A stretch of 42,000 nt of DNA from a virus (taxonomy: Duplodnaviria; Caudoviricetes), in IMG/VR virus record IMGVR_UViG_3300019124_000014, positions 1 through 42,000 of that record; one strand, written 5' to 3'. The translations under genes and the position numbers were made by a program. How positions within the stretch are numbered: the first letter of the stretch is position 1; the number at the start of each line of letters is the position of its first letter. The notes below the pieces were generated by a model, which was not told the DNA's origin, ran no database searches, and saw only the letters and a list, made by a program, of their open reading frames with translations. Below, piece by piece: positions 4,367-42,000 of this stretch.

Positions 4367-4558
4367 ATGGCGACAATGAAAACGAAATCCGTCGGATTCA
4401 ACGTAGACGACGAAAAAGAACGGTTGTTGTATGAATGGGCGGCGAGTCAACCGAATTTTTCCGAATACGTGCGGCAACTGATGCGGCAAGACATTCTCAA
4501 CAGGCAAAAGGCCCGGCAAGTGCCGAGCCAATCCGGAGGGATCAATATTCGTCTTTAG
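4367..4558 (+). CDS. Ribbon-helix-helix-type DNA-binding protein (ParR/CopG-like)
   Basis: KSVGFN strand, then helices LLYEWA and NFSEYVRQLMRQD; AAAGGCGG RBS. Confidence 0.7.
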   Translation: MATMKTKSVGFNVDDEKERLLYEWAASQPNFSEYVRQLMRQDILNRQKARQVPSQSGGINIRL

Positions 4559-4623
4559 CCAACGATGATTTTTACGAAAGTGCCGATGGCCGCGCCAATT
4601 ACTCCACCCAGGAGGAAGTACAT
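4555..4623 (-). CDS. 22-aa hydrophobic membrane peptide MYFLLGGVIGAAIGTFVKIIVG
   Basis: Minus-strand RBS AAAGGAGTGA just upstream of ATG at 4623; consensus sigG promoter upstream; GxxxGxxxG TM helix. Confidence 0.7.
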   Translation of the reverse strand: MYFLLGGVIGAAIGTFVKIIVG

Positions 4624-4656
4624 GCGGCGTTCACTCCTTTTGTTTGGTCTACAACC

Positions 4657-4686
4657 TAGTATGAACACATCACAGGCCGAATATAC
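4657..4686 (-). promoter_or_regulatory. SigG (forespore) promoter driving the 22-aa peptide
   Basis: Minus strand reads GTATA-18 bp-CATACTA, the sigG consensus. Confidence 0.75.
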
Positions 4687-4705
4687 GGCCACAGGAGGCG
4701 TTTTT

Positions 4706-5044
4706 ATGGGTGTGGTGGTAAAGATCAACGGACAATGCATAAACGCGCCTAGAACGGGCGCACAGACGGTCGCAGAGGCATTGCAGGAAATTTCCCAGCC
4801 GATCCGCAAGCACAAAGGCGAAATACTCTTTTCGAGCGGAGCGGCGTCCATGATGTCGTTGATCCGGGAATACGTTTCATTTTCGGAGTATTTGGCCATC
4901 GGGGTGCTGATGTTCGCCGGGACCATGTGGATGTTCGGGCACAGAACCAAGGCCATCGAAATGTTGATCGGCGTGGTGATCGGGTACGAAGTGATATTGC
5001 ACGCCGAGGACTTCATCGAGTGGCTGAAAGAGTTGGCAAAATAA
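4706..5044 (+). CDS. Two-TM membrane protein, VirB2/TrbC pilin-like
   Basis: AGGAGG RBS; hairpin YLAIGVLMFAGTMWMFG-HRTKA-IEMLIGVVIGYEVILHA. Confidence 0.55.
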   Translation: MGVVVKINGQCINAPRTGAQTVAEALQEISQPIRKHKGEILFSSGAASMMSLIREYVSFSEYLAIGVLMFAGTMWMFGHRTKAIEMLIGVVIGYEVILHAEDFIEWLKELAK

Positions 5045-5060
5045 AAGGGGGGCGGGCGGC

Positions 5061-5282
5061 ATGGGTGATTTCATCAAGCAAAAGTTTGGGGAAGTATTCG
5101 GCGCGTGGCTGTCGGATTTGGGGCAAGGTGCGATTGACGGTTTGACGGGCATCATGCCCGAATTGACGGTACTGGTCATGTTGGGGTGCGTGACTGTCGG
5201 CATGTTTACGAAACCAGGGCGCTGGGCGGTGCGTGCGTTCCTGGTGTTTGCGGGTGGTGCAGCATGGCTTATTTTGATATAG
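5061..5282 (+). CDS. Small two-TM membrane protein (VirB3-sized)
   Basis: Two hydrophobic segments; overlaps the start of the ATPase gene. Confidence 0.6.
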   Translation: MGDFIKQKFGEVFGAWLSDLGQGAIDGLTGIMPELTVLVMLGCVTVGMFTKPGRWAVRAFLVFAGGAAWLILI

Positions 5283-7621
5283 TCCGACCCAAAATGACCT
5301 TGTTTAAGATCACGCCTGACAAGGGTGTCACCAATAACACCAACAAGAAATTCTGGCGGATGATGCACGAATTGCTTGCCTTGGATTACTCCATCAAGGA
5401 ACGGATCGAACGGAGCGGACTGAAAATCCGATACCGCCTGCGTGACAATATATGGTTCGATGTGGTGGCCCGCGCATACCATTCCGAGGATCACCACGAT
5501 ATGGTCGAGGGGGAGAAAGAAACCAAGCACAAGGTGGAGTTTTTCATGGCGTGCCCGGCGAAGTTTGCGCCGACGATCAAAAGCAAGATGATCGACCGGT
5601 ATCCGCAAGCGACCATCGAGGAAGTGGATTTTTCCGCCGTCGAGGTCCCGGCAGACGCAGACGTGATCGAGTACCGATACAAGCGGCACGACGTTTTTTC
5701 ACTCAACTGCAACGATACCGAGCAGACGACGCCAATTTCGTCTTTGCTCAACGCTGCCTACGAATTGCAAGCGGGTGATTTCATGCGTTTTTCCGTTTGC
5801 GTGGAGCGGATCGACCGGAAGAAGTGGAAAGGGATGGCCGAGTACGGGTGGGGCCTTCTGGACCAAAAGCGGGTCCCGCAGCGCGTGCGATTCGAGCCGA
5901 GCAAGCTGCTGGAAAGCGCGGCGGACGTGGTGAAATTCTTGGCGTTTGAGGTCAAAGGGCTGCTGGACGACGTGTTGCATACGGTGCAAAATTCCTTTTT
6001 CAAGGACGACGGCAAGCGGCAGGAGCGACCAAAAATCACCTTTCACTCCAAAGAATATGACGCGCTGATGGCCAACGGCAAACTGTCTGACAACACCATC
6101 AAGAAACAGTTTGAACCGGTGTTCGCTGCGAACATTCGTCTGTCCGTTCATTCACAGGATAAGGCCCGCAAGCACATGATTGCCAATTCGGTGACGGGCG
6201 CACTGAACGAATTGAAGGGCGACAACTATTTGGAGCCGCGCAAAGTGCGGGTCAACATTCGCGCCAAGCACATCGAGGAAATGAACACGTTTCAGCGATT
6301 GACCGGGCATGATCCTGACCGCAATATCATGAGTTGCAAGGAGTTGGGCAAACTAAACCAGTATCCGGGCAGGGAGTTGCAGGCGAAATACGCTGACCTG
6401 CTGGACGTGAAACCGCATTTGGAGGTTGACATACCGGCGGAGTTTCGGGACGAACGCGGCCTATACATTGCGGACGCGGTAGTCAAAGGCACGAAAATCC
6501 CGATCCATTTACCGGCGACAAAAAGCCATTGGGATGAATTGTGCCTGCCGAAAGTGGTCATAGGCGGTCAAGGCCAGGGCAAAACTGCGGGATTTGGGGG
6601 GAATCTTGTCGTTGAGGCCGTCAAAAAGGGGTTCGGCGGTATCGCTATAGATGCGGCGAAAGGGCAGATAGGGGATGAGGTAGTGGCCGCACTCCCGGCA
6701 GACAAGGTGCGCCGGTTCAACCTGGCAAATACCGTTTTCGGTTTGGATTGGTGCGAGGTAAAGCACGCGCCGCGCGGCAGGGGGATGCTGGCGGATGCGG
6801 TCCTGGCGTTCTTTGACGACAACACAGACACCGCCGGGGCGCAAACGCAACGGTTCCTGATGGCCGCCGTTTACGGGATGCAGACCGGCAAGCTAAAAGA
6901 GATCGTGAAGATATTCCGGGACGAAAAATACAGGGCGGAGGTTATCACCAAGATGCCGGACACCATCCACCGGGAAACACTGGCCGAGTACCACGAGTAC
7001 AAACCGGACAGACAACGCCAGATTGCCGCACCGATTTTTAACCGTCTGAACGTCGTTTTGGGCGACGAGTGGCTAATGCAATGTTTTGACAGCGACCTAT
7101 CAATTGACATGGTGGAACTGATGAGTACGCCGCAGGCGGTCATTTTCGACCTTCCGAAGCGGGACGGCCTGACGGAGAAGCAGATCGACATACTCGCCAA
7201 TCTGCTGACAACGAAGATCAACTTGGCCATGCAATTGCGCCCGGAGGAAAAGCAATTCCCGTTTTTCGTTGTGTACGACGAGCCGCACCGGTTCCTGCGA
7301 TCCGCGAACCTATGGGAAAGCCTGGCGGTAGAGAGCCGCAAGTGGCGCGTGTCGTTTGTCTGGATGTTTCATGAGTGGTTGATGATCCCGCGCGAGTTGC
7401 GCCAGATCATCAAAAGTGCGCTGCCGCATTATTTCCTCTATCCGAGCGACTACCAAACATTCGCGGACCTGGCGCACTACATCCAGCCGTTTGAGCCAGA
7501 CGACGCAATCAAGTTGCAACGATTCCACGCGATCAACTGCATTCGCTTGAACAGCGTGATTCAGCCGTTTATTGCAAAGATGGCCGCACCACCTAGCCAA
7601 CGGTCGGTCCAAGCGGTATAA
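5264..7621 (+). CDS. VirD4/TraD/HerA-FtsK superfamily P-loop ATPase (785 aa)
   Basis: Walker A VVIGGQGQGKT, Walker B FVVYDEPH, ESRKWRVSFVWMFH motif, IDAAKG; no N-terminal TM segment. Confidence 0.8.
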   Translation: MAYFDIVRPKMTLFKITPDKGVTNNTNKKFWRMMHELLALDYSIKERIERSGLKIRYRLRDNIWFDVVARAYHSEDHHDMVEGEKETKHKVEFFMACPAKFAPTIKSKMIDRYPQATIEEVDFSAVEVPADADVIEYRYKRHDVFSLNCNDTEQTTPISSLLNAAYELQAGDFMRFSVCVERIDRKKWKGMAEYGWGLLDQKRVPQRVRFEPSKLLESAADVVKFLAFEVKGLLDDVLHTVQNSFFKDDGKRQERPKITFHSKEYDALMANGKLSDNTIKKQFEPVFAANIRLSVHSQDKARKHMIANSVTGALNELKGDNYLEPRKVRVNIRAKHIEEMNTFQRLTGHDPDRNIMSCKELGKLNQYPGRELQAKYADLLDVKPHLEVDIPAEFRDERGLYIADAVVKGTKIPIHLPATKSHWDELCLPKVVIGGQGQGKTAGFGGNLVVEAVKKGFGGIAIDAAKGQIGDEVVAALPADKVRRFNLANTVFGLDWCEVKHAPRGRGMLADAVLAFFDDNTDTAGAQTQRFLMAAVYGMQTGKLKEIVKIFRDEKYRAEVITKMPDTIHRETLAEYHEYKPDRQRQIAAPIFNRLNVVLGDEWLMQCFDSDLSIDMVELMSTPQAVIFDLPKRDGLTEKQIDILANLLTTKINLAMQLRPEEKQFPFFVVYDEPHRFLRSANLWESLAVESRKWRVSFVWMFHEWLMIPRELRQIIKSALPHYFLYPSDYQTFADLAHYIQPFEPDDAIKLQRFHAINCIRLNSVIQPFIAKMAAPPSQRSVQAV

Positions 7622-7731: not shown

Positions 7732-7761
7732 TGTTGACGATGTACACATTTGTGGTATAGT
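7732..7761 (+). promoter_or_regulatory. SigA promoter carrying the shared TGTTGACRATGTACACA motif (copy 2)
   Basis: TTGACG (7734)-16 bp-TATAGT (7756) with extended TG. Confidence 0.75.
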
Positions 7762-9208: not shown

Positions 9209-9287
9209 TTCGACATTCGACAAAAAAATGTCGAAATCTGTCTTGACGAGTCGATTACTGGCGGTTATTATAATAACCAGTAGTAAT
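9209..9287 (+). promoter_or_regulatory. SigA promoter with three Spo0A boxes and a 34-bp palindromic operator
   Basis: TTCGACA at 9209 and 9216, TGTCGAA at 9229; TTGACG (9243)-17-TATTAT (9266); ATTACT-n3-GGTTATTATAATAACC-n3-AGTAAT at 9254-9287. Confidence 0.75.
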
Positions 9288-9314
9288 AATATACCAAGGA
9301 AACGAGGTGAGAGA

Positions 9315-9512
9315 ATGCGACTTCAAGAGTTGAGATTGGCCAAGGGATTCAAAACCCAGGAATCATTCGCAAGCGCAACCGGCCTATCTCAATCGTTTAT
9401 TGCACAAGTGGAGGCCGGGAAAAAATGGCCCAGCTTGCGAACTCTCCGGGTTATGGCGAAAACCCTGGGGTGTACGATTGACGAGATTGTAGAAGAAAAA
9501 ACGGAGGGGTAA
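9315..9512 (+). CDS. Xre/Cro-family HTH transcriptional regulator
   Basis: LQELRLAKG-TQESFA-TGLSQSFIAQVEAG-PSL-AKTLG pattern; GAGGTG RBS. Confidence 0.88.
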   Translation: MRLQELRLAKGFKTQESFASATGLSQSFIAQVEAGKKWPSLRTLRVMAKTLGCTIDEIVEEKTEG

Positions 9513-13466: not shown

Positions 13467-13477
13467 ACAACCGAAGG

Positions 13478-13507
13478 AAAATCCCGGAAAAAATCCGGGG
13501 TTTTTTA
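13478..13507 (+). terminator. Intrinsic terminator after dut
   Basis: AAATCCCGGA-aaaaa-TCCGGGGTTT followed by T run. Confidence 0.8.
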
Positions 13508-13574
13508 TTGCCAAGCCGGTCTGTCGATGGTATATTGGTTGTAAAGATTTTACGAACCAAAAATCCTTACAACC
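13508..13574 (+). promoter_or_regulatory. SigA promoter of the receptor gene with operator 1 over the start site
   Basis: TTGCCA (13508)-17-TATATT (13531); inverted repeat GGTTGTAAAGATTTT...AAAATCCTTACAACC at 13537-13574 (GTTGTA-N24-TACAAC). Confidence 0.75.
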
Positions 13575-13591
13575 ACGCAAGGGGGAATACG

Positions 13592-14890
13592 ATGGACAAT
13601 CAAACACTTTCTTGCTATGTGTTGGACGAAATGGGCAAGCGCGGACTGACGCAGAACAAGGTGGCTGCCATGTCCGGAATCAACAAGGGAAACTTGACGA
13701 AGTATCTCAAAGGCGCGGCATGGTACACGCTGGACGTGGTTGACAAGTTGGTTGACGCGATTGGTCTGGACCGCCTGACTGCATACGAACTGTACAGCAA
13801 AGAGGTTTTCAGATCGGATGCAAGCAAAGTCATGAAAAAGCGGGAAGATTTGCTTAAAAGGTGTATCGAGCATGGTTTCGTGGAATTGGCAGAGCGCGTG
13901 GCCAGCGCCATGCTGGAAGAAGGGTCTACGGCAATAGGTTTCTACCGCATGGCCGAGGAATACCGGCTACAAGGAAAAGAGAGCGAGGCGCTTGGCCTGT
14001 ATGACAAAGCCATGAGCCTGGAAACGGACCGATATTCCGAATTGCTGGCCTTGTGCCTCTACCGGAAATTTTCCATTTTGCGTGATAAGGATTTGAAGCG
14101 GGTCTATGACGTGGCGTTGGAATTTTCGCTGTACATCAAGAATTTACCGTCTTTTGGCCCGCAAGAGCAAGCGGAAAAATTAGAGGCGTACCGCAAACTG
14201 ATTGCGACATTCTACGAGTTGAAAAAATACGATCACATGTTGTTTTACTGCGACGAACTGGCCGAATTGACCACGAAAATGCAAGGAGCGGACGAGCGGA
14301 CAGCAAGAAAATACCACGGGTATTCCAAGGTGTACAAGGGTTTTGCTTTGAGGGCCACAAAGCGGTATCCCGAAGCGCTGGCGGTCATTGAAGAGTACCG
14401 CGACAACGACACGGATAATTTCTCGGCATGGGCTACGAGCAACAACCTATACGTTCGTGTTGAAATGGGAGAAGTTGAGGCGATCCCGGAAATGCTGGAA
14501 TTTGTGAAGAAAAATCCAATGAACAGCACAGGCGTAATTTTGTCGTTACAAACCTATTTATCCCATGGTAAAATAGTAGATGCGGGGTACGTTGTTGAAA
14601 CGTATCGGGAGCAGATCGACAAAATAATCAACTCTTGCGATATGTTCTATCAAACGTGGCAATGCGACCTTTTTGTTGCGCTTTCCGAATACTACCGGAT
14701 CGCGGGACAAAAAGAGAAGGCCAAGGCATGTTTGATAGACGCTATACGCGCAAGTTTGCGCTTGTGCCAACACGAAAAGTGGCTGCATTGCATCCAGACA
14801 TACAACGCACATTACATCGAGAAGAGCGCAGACAATGTTGATTATTTCGAGTTGCTTTCACAATCCGGCAAATTGTTCAACGGAGAGTGA
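13592..14890 (+). CDS. RRNPP-family peptide receptor (AimR/AloR-like): N-terminal Xre HTH plus TPR repeats
   Basis: HTH GLTQNKVAAMSGINKGNLTKYLKG; helical TPR-like body (EALGLYDKAM, LALCLYRKF, YPEALAVIEEY, FSAWATSNN); 432 aa; followed directly by a secreted pro-peptide gene. Confidence 0.85.
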   Translation: MDNQTLSCYVLDEMGKRGLTQNKVAAMSGINKGNLTKYLKGAAWYTLDVVDKLVDAIGLDRLTAYELYSKEVFRSDASKVMKKREDLLKRCIEHGFVELAERVASAMLEEGSTAIGFYRMAEEYRLQGKESEALGLYDKAMSLETDRYSELLALCLYRKFSILRDKDLKRVYDVALEFSLYIKNLPSFGPQEQAEKLEAYRKLIATFYELKKYDHMLFYCDELAELTTKMQGADERTARKYHGYSKVYKGFALRATKRYPEALAVIEEYRDNDTDNFSAWATSNNLYVRVEMGEVEAIPEMLEFVKKNPMNSTGVILSLQTYLSHGKIVDAGYVVETYREQIDKIINSCDMFYQTWQCDLFVALSEYYRIAGQKEKAKACLIDAIRASLRLCQHEKWLHCIQTYNAHYIEKSADNVDYFELLSQSGKLFNGE

Positions 14891-14896
14891 TTCGGA

Positions 14897-14986
14897 ATGA
14901 AGAAGCTTGCGTGCGCTGTTTTTATCTTGGCTTGTGCCATGGCAATTCCGCTTATGGCCTTTGCTGACAGTGGACCAGGACACTAA
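14897..14986 (+). CDS. AimP/AloP-like signalling pro-peptide MKKLACAVFILACAMAIPLMAFA-DSGPGH
   Basis: Not in the ORF track; Sec signal (MKK, hydrophobic core, A-F-A cleavage site) leaves hexapeptide DSGPGH; 6 nt after the receptor stop; GGAGAGTGA RBS. Confidence 0.88.
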   Translation: MKKLACAVFILACAMAIPLMAFADSGPGH

Positions 14987-14994
14987 GGGGCACC

Positions 14995-15030
14995 AAAAAA
15001 GACCTTGCCGATTTCGGCAGGGTCTTTTTT
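14995..15030 (+). terminator. Terminator of the receptor-peptide operon
   Basis: AAAAAAGACCTTGCCG-attt-CGGCAGGGTCTTTTTT. Confidence 0.9.
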
Positions 15031-15051
15031 GTTCCTCAAAAAAAGTAGAGT

Positions 15052-15088
15052 GTTGTAGAAAATTAATAGAATCAAAAAAACTTACAAC
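15052..15088. promoter_or_regulatory. Operator 2 for the receptor (AimR-box geometry)
   Basis: GTTGTA-N25-TACAAC with an AT-rich spacer; same half-sites as operator 1. Confidence 0.75.
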
Positions 15089-15173
15089 CAAATGTAAAGT
15101 AGAGTCAAGAGGAACGACAACAAAGGTAAACGGCGTGGTTGTCGGTCCCGAATTTTGCGAGGGGGAAATGAGT

Positions 15174-15590
15174 ATGACAAAGGCGATTGACATTCAAAAA
15201 GAGCAAAAGGCGGTTCTGGCAGCGGTGATCCTACATAACGCCGGGCGGCGCATGACCTACGAGGAATTGAGCGTAGAGTTTGGGGCATTGTCGGAGAGCG
15301 TCGGGCCGGTGGACATGGAGGACGTCATGCGTCGGTTCCCGGAAGTGGTGCGCGTGGCGGACAACGTGTACAAGTACGTGGACAAGCCGCGGGCGTACAG
15401 CACCGCCGAAATGATCCAGGCAGCGCAGCATGAAGATGTGTACGAGTGCGTTGGGGGCGACAATGCATTCCTTGGCAAGAAAGTGCGGCGCGGGCGGAGC
15501 GGGATCATGTGGATTACCGGATTCATGGCGGGCGAATTACTGGCGGTTGGCGACGTGGTTTTGGGCCTGGTTTGGAAGAAAGAACAATGA
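15174..15590 (+). CDS. Gene in the aimX position; possible N-terminal winged-helix (Rok-like) domain
   Basis: GAGGGGG RBS; lies between operator 2 and a terminator; VILHNAGRRMTYEEL...VMRRFPEVVRVADNVYKY resembles a wHTH. Confidence 0.55.
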   Translation: MTKAIDIQKEQKAVLAAVILHNAGRRMTYEELSVEFGALSESVGPVDMEDVMRRFPEVVRVADNVYKYVDKPRAYSTAEMIQAAQHEDVYECVGGDNAFLGKKVRRGRSGIMWITGFMAGELLAVGDVVLGLVWKKEQ

Positions 15591-15605: not shown

Positions 15606-15690
15606 TTCGACACGCCCAATAATTTTTTGGGCGTTTTTTGTCGAAAAATAGCGAATTTTCGTAGACAAGCTGGGCGTGTTGTTGTAAAGT
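15606..15690 (+). promoter_or_regulatory. Terminator flanked by Spo0A boxes, then a SigA promoter for the replication operon
   Basis: TTCGACA at 15606; ACGCCCAA/TTGGGCGT hairpin plus T run; TGTCGAA at 15639; TAGACA (15662)-17-TAAAGT (15685). Confidence 0.7.
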
Positions 15691-16047: not shown

Positions 16048-16890
16048 GTGGCGGAACGCAGGATGTTGAGCAAGATCATAAGCGTATCTGAAAGGGTCAA
16101 CCAATTGCCCGACATTTTCCACATGTTGCTTTTTACCTGGATGATCCCGCACTCTGACGATTTCGGGAGGCTGCCGGGATCGCCCATGAAAATCAAGGCG
16201 CTTGTCGTTCCGATGTTGGACAAGAGTGCCGGTGATGTGGCCGCAGCATTGCAAGCCATGCACGATTCGGGGCTTATCGTTTGGTACGAAGTAGACGGCG
16301 AAAAGTATATTCAGATCAACAATTTTGAGGCGCACCAAACCGGTTTGCACAAGCGCACAAGATCAAAATTCCCACCCGTTCCGGGAACTTCCGGGAATTT
16401 CTCGGAAATTCCCTCTGAACAGAATAGAACTGAACTGAACAGAACAGAAAGGAAGGGAACAGAAGATGAACAGAAGGGAGAGGGTCAGCAGCATCAACAA
16501 GAAAATCCTTTCGACTTCTACGAAAACAACATTGGCCGGTTGTCTCCCAAAATCCGAGAAGAGATCAACCGATGGATGGATGATTTCCCTACGGACGTGA
16601 TTGTGGAGGCAATGAACCAAGCGATTGTCAACAACAAGGCATCGTGGGGATATGCAAACAGTTGCCTGACGACATGGTTCAACAAAGGGGCGAAAACGCT
16701 GGCGGACGTGAAAGTCTTGCAAGTAGAGTTTGAGCGCAACAAAGGGGGTAAATCACATGCTGGGGATGGACGAGGTTCTAAAGCGACTGCAAGAGAAGGC
16801 GGAGCAAGCCCGTTCGACAACTTCCAAGCAACAACCAAGCGATTCCTTAACTACGAGCCAGAAGAGGGAGAGGACGACGACCTGTTCTAA
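16048..16890 (+). CDS. Phage replication initiator with C-terminal DnaD domain
   Basis: N-terminal MAERRM...HSDDFGR winged helix; FDFYENNIG...EAMNQA...WGYANSCLTTW DnaD motif. Confidence 0.88.
   Translation: MAERRMLSKIISVSERVNQLPDIFHMLLFTWMIPHSDDFGRLPGSPMKIKALVVPMLDKSAGDVAAALQAMHDSGLIVWYEVDGEKYIQINNFEAHQTGLHKRTRSKFPPVPGTSGNFSEIPSEQNRTELNRTERKGTEDEQKGEGQQHQQENPFDFYENNIGRLSPKIREEINRWMDDFPTDVIVEAMNQAIVNNKASWGYANSCLTTWFNKGAKTLADVKVLQVEFERNKGGKSHAGDGRGSKATAREGGASPFDNFQATTKRFLNYEPEEGEDDDLF
16379..16450 (+). repeat. Probable replication origin: 10-bp iterons plus 5-bp (A/T)GAA(C/T) repeats inside the initiator gene
   Basis: TTCCGGGAAC TTCCGGGAAT TTCTCGGAAA followed by TGAAC AGAAT AGAAC TGAAC TGAAC AGAAC AGAA in the inter-domain linker. 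Confidence 0.7.
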
Positions 16891-17584
16891 ATGCAACGAC
16901 CAAGAGGGGTTTTTGTTCCGGGATGAGGAAGGCGTGGAGCGGTGGAGGTTCTGCGAGTGCTACTGGCAAAAGCGCGTGCTGGCGACCAGTAAAATCACCG
17001 ACGAGTTTAAAGAGAAGGGGTTCAAGAATTTTGTCTTGGATGGACGGCCCGAAATCGTGCGCGTCATGTATGGAACCGCCATGCGCTATGTGAAAGAGTT
17101 TGAGGCGATCCGCAACGAGCGACGAAATTCCATTGCGCTATTGGGCAATCCGGGCGTCGGCAAAACGCATTTGCTCATGGCCGCCAGCAACAATCTCATG
17201 TCGAAAGGCGTTCCCGTTACATACTTCCCATGGGTGGAAACATGGAACGAGATCAAGGACGATTTTGACCTACTACATCAACGGGTGAACATGCTGAAAG
17301 GTTGCGAATTGCTGTTCATCGACGACCTTTTCAAAGGTCGCCCGCAAGATGAATATGGGCGGGGTGGACCGACGGCGTTTCAGTTGGAACAACTTTTTGT
17401 CATCGTGAACTATCGCTACATGGAGCGCAAGCCAATCATGTTGTCGTCTGAAATGACTTTCAAGCAAATTCTAAAAATCGACCATGGCATTGGTTCCCGC
17501 CTGTTTGAAATGTGCAAAGGGTTCACCGTCGAATCTGAGGGCGGCGATCCGTTCAAGATGAATTATCGGTTGATCGAGGAATGA
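16757..17584 (+). CDS. DnaC/IstB-like AAA+ helicase loader
   Basis: CSKC/CEC Zn motif; Walker A GNPGVGKT; Walker B LLFIDDL; VNYRY and IGSRLFEM. Confidence 0.92.
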   Translation: MLGMDEVLKRLQEKAEQARSTTSKQQPSDSLTTSQKRERTTTCSKCNDQEGFLFRDEEGVERWRFCECYWQKRVLATSKITDEFKEKGFKNFVLDGRPEIVRVMYGTAMRYVKEFEAIRNERRNSIALLGNPGVGKTHLLMAASNNLMSKGVPVTYFPWVETWNEIKDDFDLLHQRVNMLKGCELLFIDDLFKGRPQDEYGRGGPTAFQLEQLFVIVNYRYMERKPIMLSSEMTFKQILKIDHGIGSRLFEMCKGFTVESEGGDPFKMNYRLIEE

Positions 17585-22760: not shown

Positions 22761-22791
22761 TGTTGACGATGTACACAAAATTGGATATGAT
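22761..22791 (+). promoter_or_regulatory. SigA promoter carrying the shared TGTTGACRATGTACACA motif (copy 3)
   Basis: TTGACG (22763)-17-TATGAT (22786). Confidence 0.8.
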
Positions 22792-41488: not shown

Positions 41489-42000
41489 ATGCCATTCAAT
41501 TTCAAATTGCCGCAATGGAACAAGAGCGAACCTGATCCGCCGCAATCGAAACTGGATGCCGGATTCGGACCGGGAGAAAAGCCGTCTGCCTCTCTTTTCA
41601 ACTGGTTTTTCAACCTGGTATCCGCAGCGCTTTCTGAGATCAAAAACAACGGCGAAACGACGACAGGAGCACAGGCCAAGGTTGACGCTCACGCCAACAA
41701 CACAAGCATACACGTAACACCGGCAGACAAAACCCGGTGGGACGCTGCGGCGAATGCGAATCCGTCCATGTTCGCAAGTGTGAGCGTCAAAACTTCTACC
41801 GGGGCACAAAAAGGAAACAACTTGGCGGCAGATCAATCAGCAGACACATTGAACATCCAAGAAGGGTCGGCCATCATTATCACGCCGAACGACGCAACGG
41901 ACACCATGACAATCGCCGTTGACACCACGCAATTCGCACCGGCGGCACACGTTGGGGCCGGGGGAGCGGCACACGCGGTGGCGACGCAATCCGCCGCCGG
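41489..42000 (+). CDS. Tail fibre protein, N-terminal part (runs off the window end)
   Basis: LPQW...PPQSKLDAGF.PGEKP...FNWFF baseplate-anchor motif; AQAKVDAHANNTSIHVT; continues into the sequence seen at window start. Confidence 0.88.
   Translation, partial: MPFNFKLPQWNKSEPDPPQSKLDAGFGPGEKPSASLFNWFFNLVSAALSEIKNNGETTTGAQAKVDAHANNTSIHVTPADKTRWDAAANANPSMFASVSVKTSTGAQKGNNLAADQSADTLNIQEGSAIIITPNDATDTMTIAVDTTQFAPAAHVGAGGAAHAVATQSAA

Follow-up and report, generated by a model that had tools for sequence, protein, structure and literature searches.

The window analysed here is a 42,000-nt stretch of DNA that makes up the entire IMG/VR virus record IMGVR_UViG_3300019124_000014 (Duplodnaviria; Caudoviricetes). 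Between positions 13,508 and 15,590 we identified a candidate peptide communication cassette comprising a receptor gene of the RRNPP family, a 29-amino-acid (aa) propeptide open reading frame (ORF) with the predicted signal DSGPGH, a terminator-like hairpin, two copies of a palindromic operator and a 138-aa orphan gene, orf138. This is very probably a real and intact RRNPP cassette, AloR-related and outside the canonical AloR clade, with a likeness to arbitrium at the level of the operators. Our reading, to which we assign a probability of about 0.55, is that the receptor-propeptide pair and its two palindromes form a density sensor of the phage, with orf138, and not a lysogeny repressor, as its predicted output.

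Receptor, propeptide and operators

The receptor gene starts with an ATG at 13592 preceded by a GGGGGA ribosome site and encodes 432 aa. Pfam placed an XRE-type helix-turn-helix (HTH) domain, HTH_3, at residues 16-60 and a weak tetratricopeptide repeat (TPR) match, TPR_2, at residues 116-144. An AlphaFold (AF2) model built from a 105-row alignment was wholly helical, with a predicted local distance difference test score (pLDDT) of 94.3, and its structural neighbours were TPR superhelices. These included NprR (Z 19.1, root mean square deviation (rmsd) 8.0, 288 aligned), RapI (Z 18.4, rmsd 5.0, 263 aligned) and AimR (Z 16.0, rmsd 19.2, 366 aligned), although the fold alone does not name the receptor family because generic TPR proteins score equally high. 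As modelled, the protein thus has the N-terminal HTH and TPR superhelix of the RRNPP(A) group. A preliminary description, made from the sequence alone, had reported a 432-aa HTH-TPR gene containing the motifs LALCLYRKF and FSAWATSN, and had held that lack of a TPR fold would count against a peptide receptor; domains and model bear out the gene, both motifs are present, and the all-helical model falls among TPR superhelices.

The propeptide ORF begins 6 nt past the receptor stop codon. Its product has a basic N-end, a hydrophobic core and a signal-peptidase motif, as expected of the short ORF adjoining an RRNPP(A) receptor, and is predicted to consist of a 23-aa Sec signal ending in A-F-A followed by DSGPGH (14966-14983) and the stop, in agreement with the preliminary description. 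Signal and cut site were assigned by motif and by comparison with relatives rather than by SignalP. The comparison drew on nine distinct phage-type loci, namely phage Emery, three Brevibacillus phage-plasmids (NZ_CP085877, NZ_CP085875 and NZ_CP150492) and five of 14 mapped loci, the rest of the 14 being one duplicate of L002, one locus without a receptor call and seven in other contexts. Eight of the nine propeptides are built of a signal, a hexapeptide, a linker and a hexapeptide, the first copy standing directly behind A-x-A or V-S-A in 8/9 loci. These first copies are EDGPGW, DNGPKW (two loci), DIGERP, DIGERG, DGGERP, GSGIGW and HGGIGW, each starting right after a cut motif at residue 22-26 (residue 23 in six of the eight, as in the window). 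DSGPGH is therefore a well supported prediction for the signal, since the relatives carry similar hexapeptides directly behind the cut motif. It differs at two positions from DNGPGW, in which the L007 propeptide terminates, and the earlier view that it is unusual in not being of the xxxRGA type does not hold within its own lineage, where DNGPGW, EDGPGW and DNGPKW are found.

The preliminary description had also singled out the lack of a pro-region. There is none here, which is uncommon yet not unique: the L044 propeptide (G024:C18) has a long signal ending in A-A-A, then NDGERG and a stop, and a copy right behind the motif is usual in the phage loci. No repressor pair neighbours L044. In PMC9765709 (Fig. 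1B) the generic case is shown with signal peptidase as the only releasing enzyme, and propeptide processing and repeated pheromones are covered there and in PMC11343458. The window peptide looks like the two-copy form cut after its first copy. A search with the pattern A-D/E-x-G-P-G-H-stop returned 11 viral loci, none with a signal-like ORF or a receptor match. Automatic peptide calls were obtained for 30 of 45 receptor ORFs, and four of them (L031, L034, L039 and L046) look wrong. Propeptide and receptor genes converge, on opposite strands, at L003, L016 and L025.

A terminator-like hairpin behind the dUTPase gene sets the cassette apart from the upstream genes, and is followed by a predicted sigma-A promoter whose -35 box coincides with the start at 13508 given in the preliminary description (10/12 consensus matches; about four chance hits are expected for such scans in the region). 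Operator 1 starts right behind the -10 box, over the predicted transcription start, and may mediate receptor autorepression since it covers the start of the receptor's own transcript. The pattern GTTGTA-N24/25-TACAAC has exactly two matches in the 42 kb, operators 1 and 2. Because the pattern was chosen post hoc, the shuffle test was posed for any shared 6-bp palindrome with a matching spacer in both shuffled intergenic regions, which arose in 1 of 2000 dinucleotide shuffles. Operator 2, with 6-bp inverted repeats and a 25-bp spacer 3' of the peptide gene, has the form and place of AimR boxes, for which 6-bp arms and a 25-bp spacer behind aimP have been described (PMC9232636, PMC6536502). The 6 nt between operator 2 and its candidate -10 hexamer recur in three of 11 related loci, where ATTTCC-N23-GGAAAT has TATAAT or TATGAT exactly 6 nt behind.

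The hairpin between the propeptide gene and operator 2 is probably an intrinsic, bidirectional terminator; a simple terminator scan gave it on the minus strand only. The regulated transcript is probably orf138 alone, because a further terminator-like hairpin comes after it. The terminator, operator and downstream gene of the preliminary description were thus all recovered, and operator 1 is an addition to its list. The half-site GTTGTA at 15681 lacks a second arm and was not accepted as an operator. In Emery (L001 4840-4882), GTTGTA-N29-TACAAC lies in a long palindrome between the receptor gene and a divergent XRE gene, with arms identical to those of the window operator and a different spacing.

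Table 1 Features of the cassette and of the genes discussed with it
Feature	Position	Strand	Details
Terminator-like hairpin after dUTPase gene	13477..13505	+	-16.1 kcal/mol, z -2.7, 2/200 shuffles as stable
Predicted sigma-A promoter, receptor-peptide operon	13508..13536	+	TTGCCA-17-TATATT, TG before -10
Operator 1	13538..13573	.	GTTGTA-N24-TACAAC, within 16-nt-arm inverted repeat (13536-13575)
Receptor, XRE-HTH and TPR, RRNPP family, AloR-related lineage	13592..14890	+	Pfam, AF2, blastp, tree
Propeptide ORF, 29 aa	14897..14986	+	MKKLACAVFILACAMAIPLMAFADSGPGH; motif and comparison with relatives
Strong hairpin, probable terminator	14994..15031	.	A-run before, T-run after; z -6.4, 0/200 shuffles as stable
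Operator 2	15052..15088	.	GTTGTA-N25-TACAAC; predicted activating site; spacer 84% A+T
Candidate -10 hexamer	15095..15100	+	TAAAGT, 6 nt behind operator 2, no recognisable -35
orf138, 138 aa, orphan, predicted target	15174..15590	+	no homologue or family found
Terminator-like hairpin after orf138	15606..15645	+	z -4.1; a perfect Spo0A box on either side (15606-15612 minus, 15639-15645 plus)
Predicted replication-operon promoter	15662..15690	+	TAGACA-17-TAAAGT; GTTGTA half-site only
Cro-like HTH gene, 72 aa	15726..15944	+	heads replication operon
Short serine resolvase/invertase, 185 aa	23749-24306		immediately ahead of terminase genes

Relatives of the receptor and of the cassette

At E 0.001 the receptor is matched by 129 representatives, the query counted, and only one protein, P0002 (36%), exceeds about 31% identity to it. 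The named homologues are almost all from Brevibacillus or Paenibacillus, and the only matches in a set of 50,697 phage records were Emery and SecTim467. AloR11 was found at E 1e-19 by blastp (21% identity over 418 columns) and at E 2e-59 with a profile of the relatives; we identify the Paenibacillus polymyxa ATCC 842 plasmid hit as AloR11 because the peptide that goes with it is identical to that in the AloP11 row of PMC7425212 Table S1. Identity to AloR11 and the pBRLA07 receptor is 21-26% (AloR13 was not among the receptors compared), and RRNPP_detector subfam_07 includes a member 22% identical. No AimR was present among the PDB sequence matches up to E 1, and no AimR model among Pfam or NCBIfam matches up to E 0.1, so that the sequence homology that would define strict arbitrium was not found. 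In a quick IQ-TREE tree of 65 rows, with Shimodaira-Hasegawa-like approximate likelihood ratio test (SH-aLRT) support, the receptor groups with P0002 (99) and sits on a long branch, and is therefore not a recent copy of a known system. The pair joins a clade (95) that includes the phage-borne receptors; the canonical AloR clade (SH-aLRT 100) is a separate one, and subfam_08 is a distant group. The receptor is thus no canonical AloR, whether judged by clade membership or by an identity of at least 30% over 80% to a reference. Membership of subfam_08 was rejected given blastp E values of 0.097 and 2.4 to two of its listed members and a long outgroup branch. The preliminary description had judged the receptor by eye closer to AloR than to the AimR of SPbeta, which searches agree with, and the phylogeny it had proposed as a check places the receptor near a phage-borne AloR-related clade.

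All nine phage-type loci carry a 107-139-aa reverse-strand repressor-like gene after the peptide gene (the four named records annotate it as an HTH regulator; elsewhere the assignment is by alignment), and a forward Cro-like gene comes next in eight. These nine loci (L001-L004, L050 and L053-L056) form an AloR-related extended arbitrium switch laid out as receptor, two-copy peptide, small ORF, divergent repressor-like gene and Cro-like gene. An aimX-aimC-aimL layout has been reported in about 75% of Bacillus arbitrium systems (bioRxiv 2025.11.23.689978). We found no description in the literature of an AloR-based aimR-P-X-C-L counterpart in these nine Brevibacillus-type phage loci; neither the peptides nor the Emery and plasmid accessions had a match in the searched part of the RRNPP_detector supplement, but other tables of it may list the loci, and subscription literature was thinly covered. 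Phage-borne AloR-family systems and spo0E neighbours have been reported (bioRxiv 2021.07.15.452460, PMC10075063).

The window cassette resembles Alo (AloR-AloP, PMC7425212) in its HTH-TPR receptor followed by a Sec propeptide, its homology to AloR11, its Gly-rich hexapeptide and, by prediction, control of the next gene. It differs from Alo in the low identity and separate clade of the receptor, in a propeptide of 29 aa as against 32-50, in a target that is an orphan and not spo0E, and in its location on a phage genome. With SPbeta/phi3T arbitrium (PMC9232636, PMC6536502) it shares the order of receptor, peptide, terminator, operator and target, the 6-bp arms around an A+T-rich 25-bp spacer and the TPR superhelix; unlike there, the arms read GTTGTA rather than ATCACT, the receptor promoter has a second operator, and neither AimR sequence similarity nor lysogeny genes were found. 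The cassette lies upstream of a Cro-like gene and replication operon as in the extended module aimR-aimP-aimX-aimC-aimL (bioRxiv 2025.11.23.689978), and the whole of that layout occurs in the receptor's nearest relatives, but the window has no aimC-like repressor, and its 138-aa orphan takes the place of the relatives' 38-60-aa AimX-like ORF and repressor. The earlier assignment to an aimR-aimP-aimX layout accordingly stands for the order of receptor, propeptide, operator and target and fails for the rest, as the downstream gene is not AimX-like; lacking AimR homology and an aimX-aimC switch, the cassette is not arbitrium in the strict sense. The nearest named receptors (24-27% identity) belong to Emery gp60-gp65 and the Brevibacillus phage-plasmids, which likewise have a hexapeptide behind A-x-A, and Emery and NZ_CP085875 have a 6-N23-6 palindrome 6 nt before a -10 box, like operator 2. 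Unlike the window, these elements have a linker between two copies of the peptide, and they also carry a divergent repressor-like gene and either an integrase or partition genes.

Genome plan and search for lysogeny genes

The ends of the 42-kb record overlap by 129 nt, 126 of them identical, within a repetitive tail-fibre gene, and on this ground the genome, of myovirus type, is called circular. The tail-fibre gene (1-480 and 41489-42000) has internal repeats and spans the contig junction, and a low-depth variant contig skips and reorders its repeat units. In the biocrust metagenome run X1 the phage path is carried by contigs of 37,332 and 4,283 nt, and no junction to host or foreign DNA was found in the contigs covering it. 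Loose contig ends at 477, 764, 9551, 11768 and 30911 are single records, of low depth where depth is given; they were rejected as att sites and taken as related sequences.

We scanned 79 plus-strand proteins for families, identifying myovirus structural and lysis genes, RecE/RecT, a dUTPase and DnaD- and DnaC-like proteins. The DnaD-like initiator (16048-16890) and DnaC-like loader (to 17584) belong to the replication operon downstream of the cassette. No integrase was found among the 79 proteins and no partition gene was annotated; the sole recombinase is the 185-aa resolvase/invertase. One ORF of 98 aa, at 17581, matches a PHROG annotated as transposase. The closest tail sheaths are those of D6E (52%) and Sam46/Sam112 (47%), and the 811-aa ATPase is nearest to D6E, TP-84 and SPP1 gp32. 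The ATPase lies in a conserved module (4367-7621) with a ribbon-helix-helix gene and two membrane proteins, of which one weakly matches the VirB2 pilin; this module is common to SPP1, D6E, TP-84 and GBK2, and Sam46 has a similar block. Sam46/Sam112 and D6E resemble the window phage in a single-strand genome plan, the SPP1 gp32-like module, RecE/RecT-type and DnaD genes and the lack of an integrase, and differ in that no receptor match was found in them; Sam46 has matching gene order with the cassette absent. Sam46 formed no lysogens, and on the strength of an immunity test it was classed as virulent (PMC8190038). A search for the tail sheath of the window in 401 Bacilli genomes (E 1e-80) found none; it had no positive control and is not counted as evidence.

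We identified no other genome with this cassette in searches from the receptor, P0002, P0004 and P0006 (IMG/VR, JGI metagenomes and GTDB). A replication-protein search returned two distant loci, of which L018, partly read, showed no cassette, and an ATPase search returned no related loci. As a possibly non-temperate carrier, SecTim467 is the nearest precedent; up to four permissive candidates have been listed for it (bioRxiv 2021.08.18.456871), and the published account gives no evidence of lysogeny (PMC4909266). SecTim467 (L095 6634-8457) has an AloR-like gene beside spo0E, and the ORF behind it is without a clear signal peptide. In the literature examined, phage peptide communication is described for temperate phages; we found no peptide system described in a virulent phage, subscription papers being thinly covered.

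No divergent repressor gene lies beside the 72-aa Cro-like HTH gene. Profiles of repressor-, Cro- and AimX-like proteins built from 8-9 relatives and run over all six frames matched three short plus-strand HTH ORFs only, with no minus-strand HTH and nothing AimX-like. Neither AimX nor a divergent AimC of the extended arbitrium module is thus in evidence, only the Cro-like plus-strand gene. The protein scans and profiles together agree with the preliminary description, which had noted neither integrase nor divergent repressor, and the phage is likely to be one without classical lysogeny. The real oddity of the cassette is this setting: all nine relatives have a divergent repressor-like gene, and the window phage has none and no integrase. 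The motif TTGACRATGTACACA, common to three strong promoter-like sites (2968-2982, 7734-7748 and 22763-22777; 0/100 shuffles reach three), is likely a site for a phage regulator.

The genome is rich in perfect boxes for the host regulator Spo0A, with 19 observed against 7.25 +/- 2.65 expected (0/100 shuffles), and eight of the 19 fall in intergenic DNA, which makes up 8% of the genome. They cluster at two early promoters, three before the 65-aa HTH gene and recE/recT and two before the replication promoter. In the first of these regions (9209-9290) the three boxes stand just upstream of the -35 box and an inverted repeat surrounds the -10 box; no divergent repressor gene lies upstream. Phage phi29 likewise has Spo0A boxes at early promoters, which let Spo0A suppress the lytic cycle while the genome enters spores (PMC2731898).

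Proposed control of orf138 and alternative readings

The mechanism that we propose starts from what the genome itself displays, namely the receptor fold, the propeptide anatomy, the terminator, the two palindromes and a Sam46-like plan. By analogy with AimR and AloR13, a free receptor dimer would bind operator 2 early in an outbreak and activate the weak orf138 promoter, and would also bind operator 1, damping its own operon. Host Sec and signal peptidase would free DSGPGH in a single cut, and the peptide, re-imported by Opp, would enter the TPR pocket and take the receptor off DNA, leaving orf138 off and the receptor and peptide genes derepressed. The gene downstream of AloR13 is switched on by that receptor and off by its peptide (PMC7425212); from this precedent and the palindrome/-10 geometry of the relatives we infer activation of orf138 at operator 2, and by the same analogy receptor-on, peptide-off control is likely.

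The weakest step concerns orf138 itself, which might be a small nucleic-acid-binding factor favouring immediate lytic growth. Structural leads suggest a winged-helix-like N-half and a KOW/SH3-like C-half, with Atlas matches under the bar for naming; a single-sequence AF2 model (pLDDT 36) was unusable. With orf138 off, the phage would hold back when crowded or host-poor, most likely with its early promoters left to host Spo0A in a phi29-like manner, and might persist in dormant or sporulating cells without integration. Deferred lysis through Spo0A or dormancy is a tentative choice of output. Equally speculative is the fuller picture of a one-cut peptide quorum by which a non-integrating phage would choose to lyse now or lie low in a sporulating or dormant host; here the peptide would turn off orf138 as an anti-silencer of the Spo0A-boxed early promoters, giving arbitrium logic without lysogeny.

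Several observations weigh against a density sensor acting through orf138 in a phage of this kind. The case rests on a single genome, and the read evidence is one probable-source sample in which rare variants are dropped by contigs. No homologue of orf138 was found at near or shorter lengths, nor in phages to E 5, and its role is for this reason a guess. The candidate -10 hexamer matches the consensus at 4/6 only, an exact palindrome shared by both places was found in 0 of 11 related loci (L002 has one with a mismatch), and in the quick tree the branch that joins the receptor to the phage clade has an SH-aLRT of 88. The SPP1 gp32-like ATPase, being present in four of 61 bacterial genomes as well, is no marker of a lytic phage. 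The 65-aa HTH at 9315 scores E 4e-9 on the repressor profile and 8e-11 on the Cro profile, which together with the shared TTGACRATGTACACA motif makes a non-standard repressor circuit possible. Matches to parS, three at three mismatches, are at chance level, and phi29 differs in this; temperate relatives also have Spo0A boxes, at 0.06-0.33/kb (partial loci) against 0.45 in the window. A link between orf138 and Spo0A is offered only as a hypothesis because no parS was found and boxes occur in temperate relatives.

We consider it unlikely that the phage is cryptically temperate, a plasmid-like or carrier prophage in which the resolvase resolves dimers, the role of repressor or antirepressor falls to a short HTH protein or orf138, and the cassette works as an ordinary lysis-lysogeny switch that has been rewired. 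The tie of all nine phage-type relatives to a repressor-like gene, several of them on phage-plasmids, would fit such a lifestyle, as would the resolvase itself, the repressor-profile score of the 65-aa HTH, the promoter motif at three sites, a portal 44% identical to portals on Bacillus cereus-group plasmids, and the position directly ahead of the Cro-like/replication operon, which is that of aimL (bioRxiv 2025.11.23.689978). However, related phage-plasmids carry ParM or a tubulin-like protein where the window has no annotated partition gene, the relatives' profiles found no minus-strand repressor, and the genome plan is that of the virulent Sam46. That the pair is instead a relic acquired from a temperate phage, now controlling nothing important and with orf138 as a passenger, is very unlikely: the receptor, the peptide and the two palindromes are all intact, two copies of the palindrome are retained though its arm is unlike the relatives' ATTTCC, and the long branch of the receptor argues against recent copying, even if no second genome with the arrangement was found, the propeptide resembles a shortened two-copy form, and terminators bound the cassette like an inserted module with a receptor G+C of 48% against 52% for the genome.

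The closeness of DSGPGH to DNGPGW and EDGPGW of Brevibacillus elements raises the distinctly unlikely prospect of eavesdropping or interference, the receptor mainly reading D/E-x-G-P-G-W peptides of co-resident prophages or a host Alo system, or DSGPGH jamming such systems, and in either case orf138 acting on a resident prophage or host defence. Cross-talk among arbitrium phages has been reported, and AloP13 lowers other alo genes (PMC7425212), but the retention of its own peptide and of an operator on its own promoter fits self-sensing. Most improbable is that a different phage protein (the 72-aa HTH or orf138) occupies the palindromes and that the receptor has its targets elsewhere. The Emery palindrome beside a divergent XRE gene and the overlap of GTTGTA half-sites with further -10 regions would suit such a binder; against it, the two sites flank the receptor-peptide operon, and a small Cro-type dimer would not span a spacer of 24-25 nt. 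The same spacer suits AimR-type dimers (PMC9232636).

The cassette is small and could be tested in Bacillus subtilis without the native host. An intact system of this kind in a virulent-type genome would show that phage density sensing can steer more than lysogeny, with delayed lysis, persistence in spores and counter-defence among the possible outputs.

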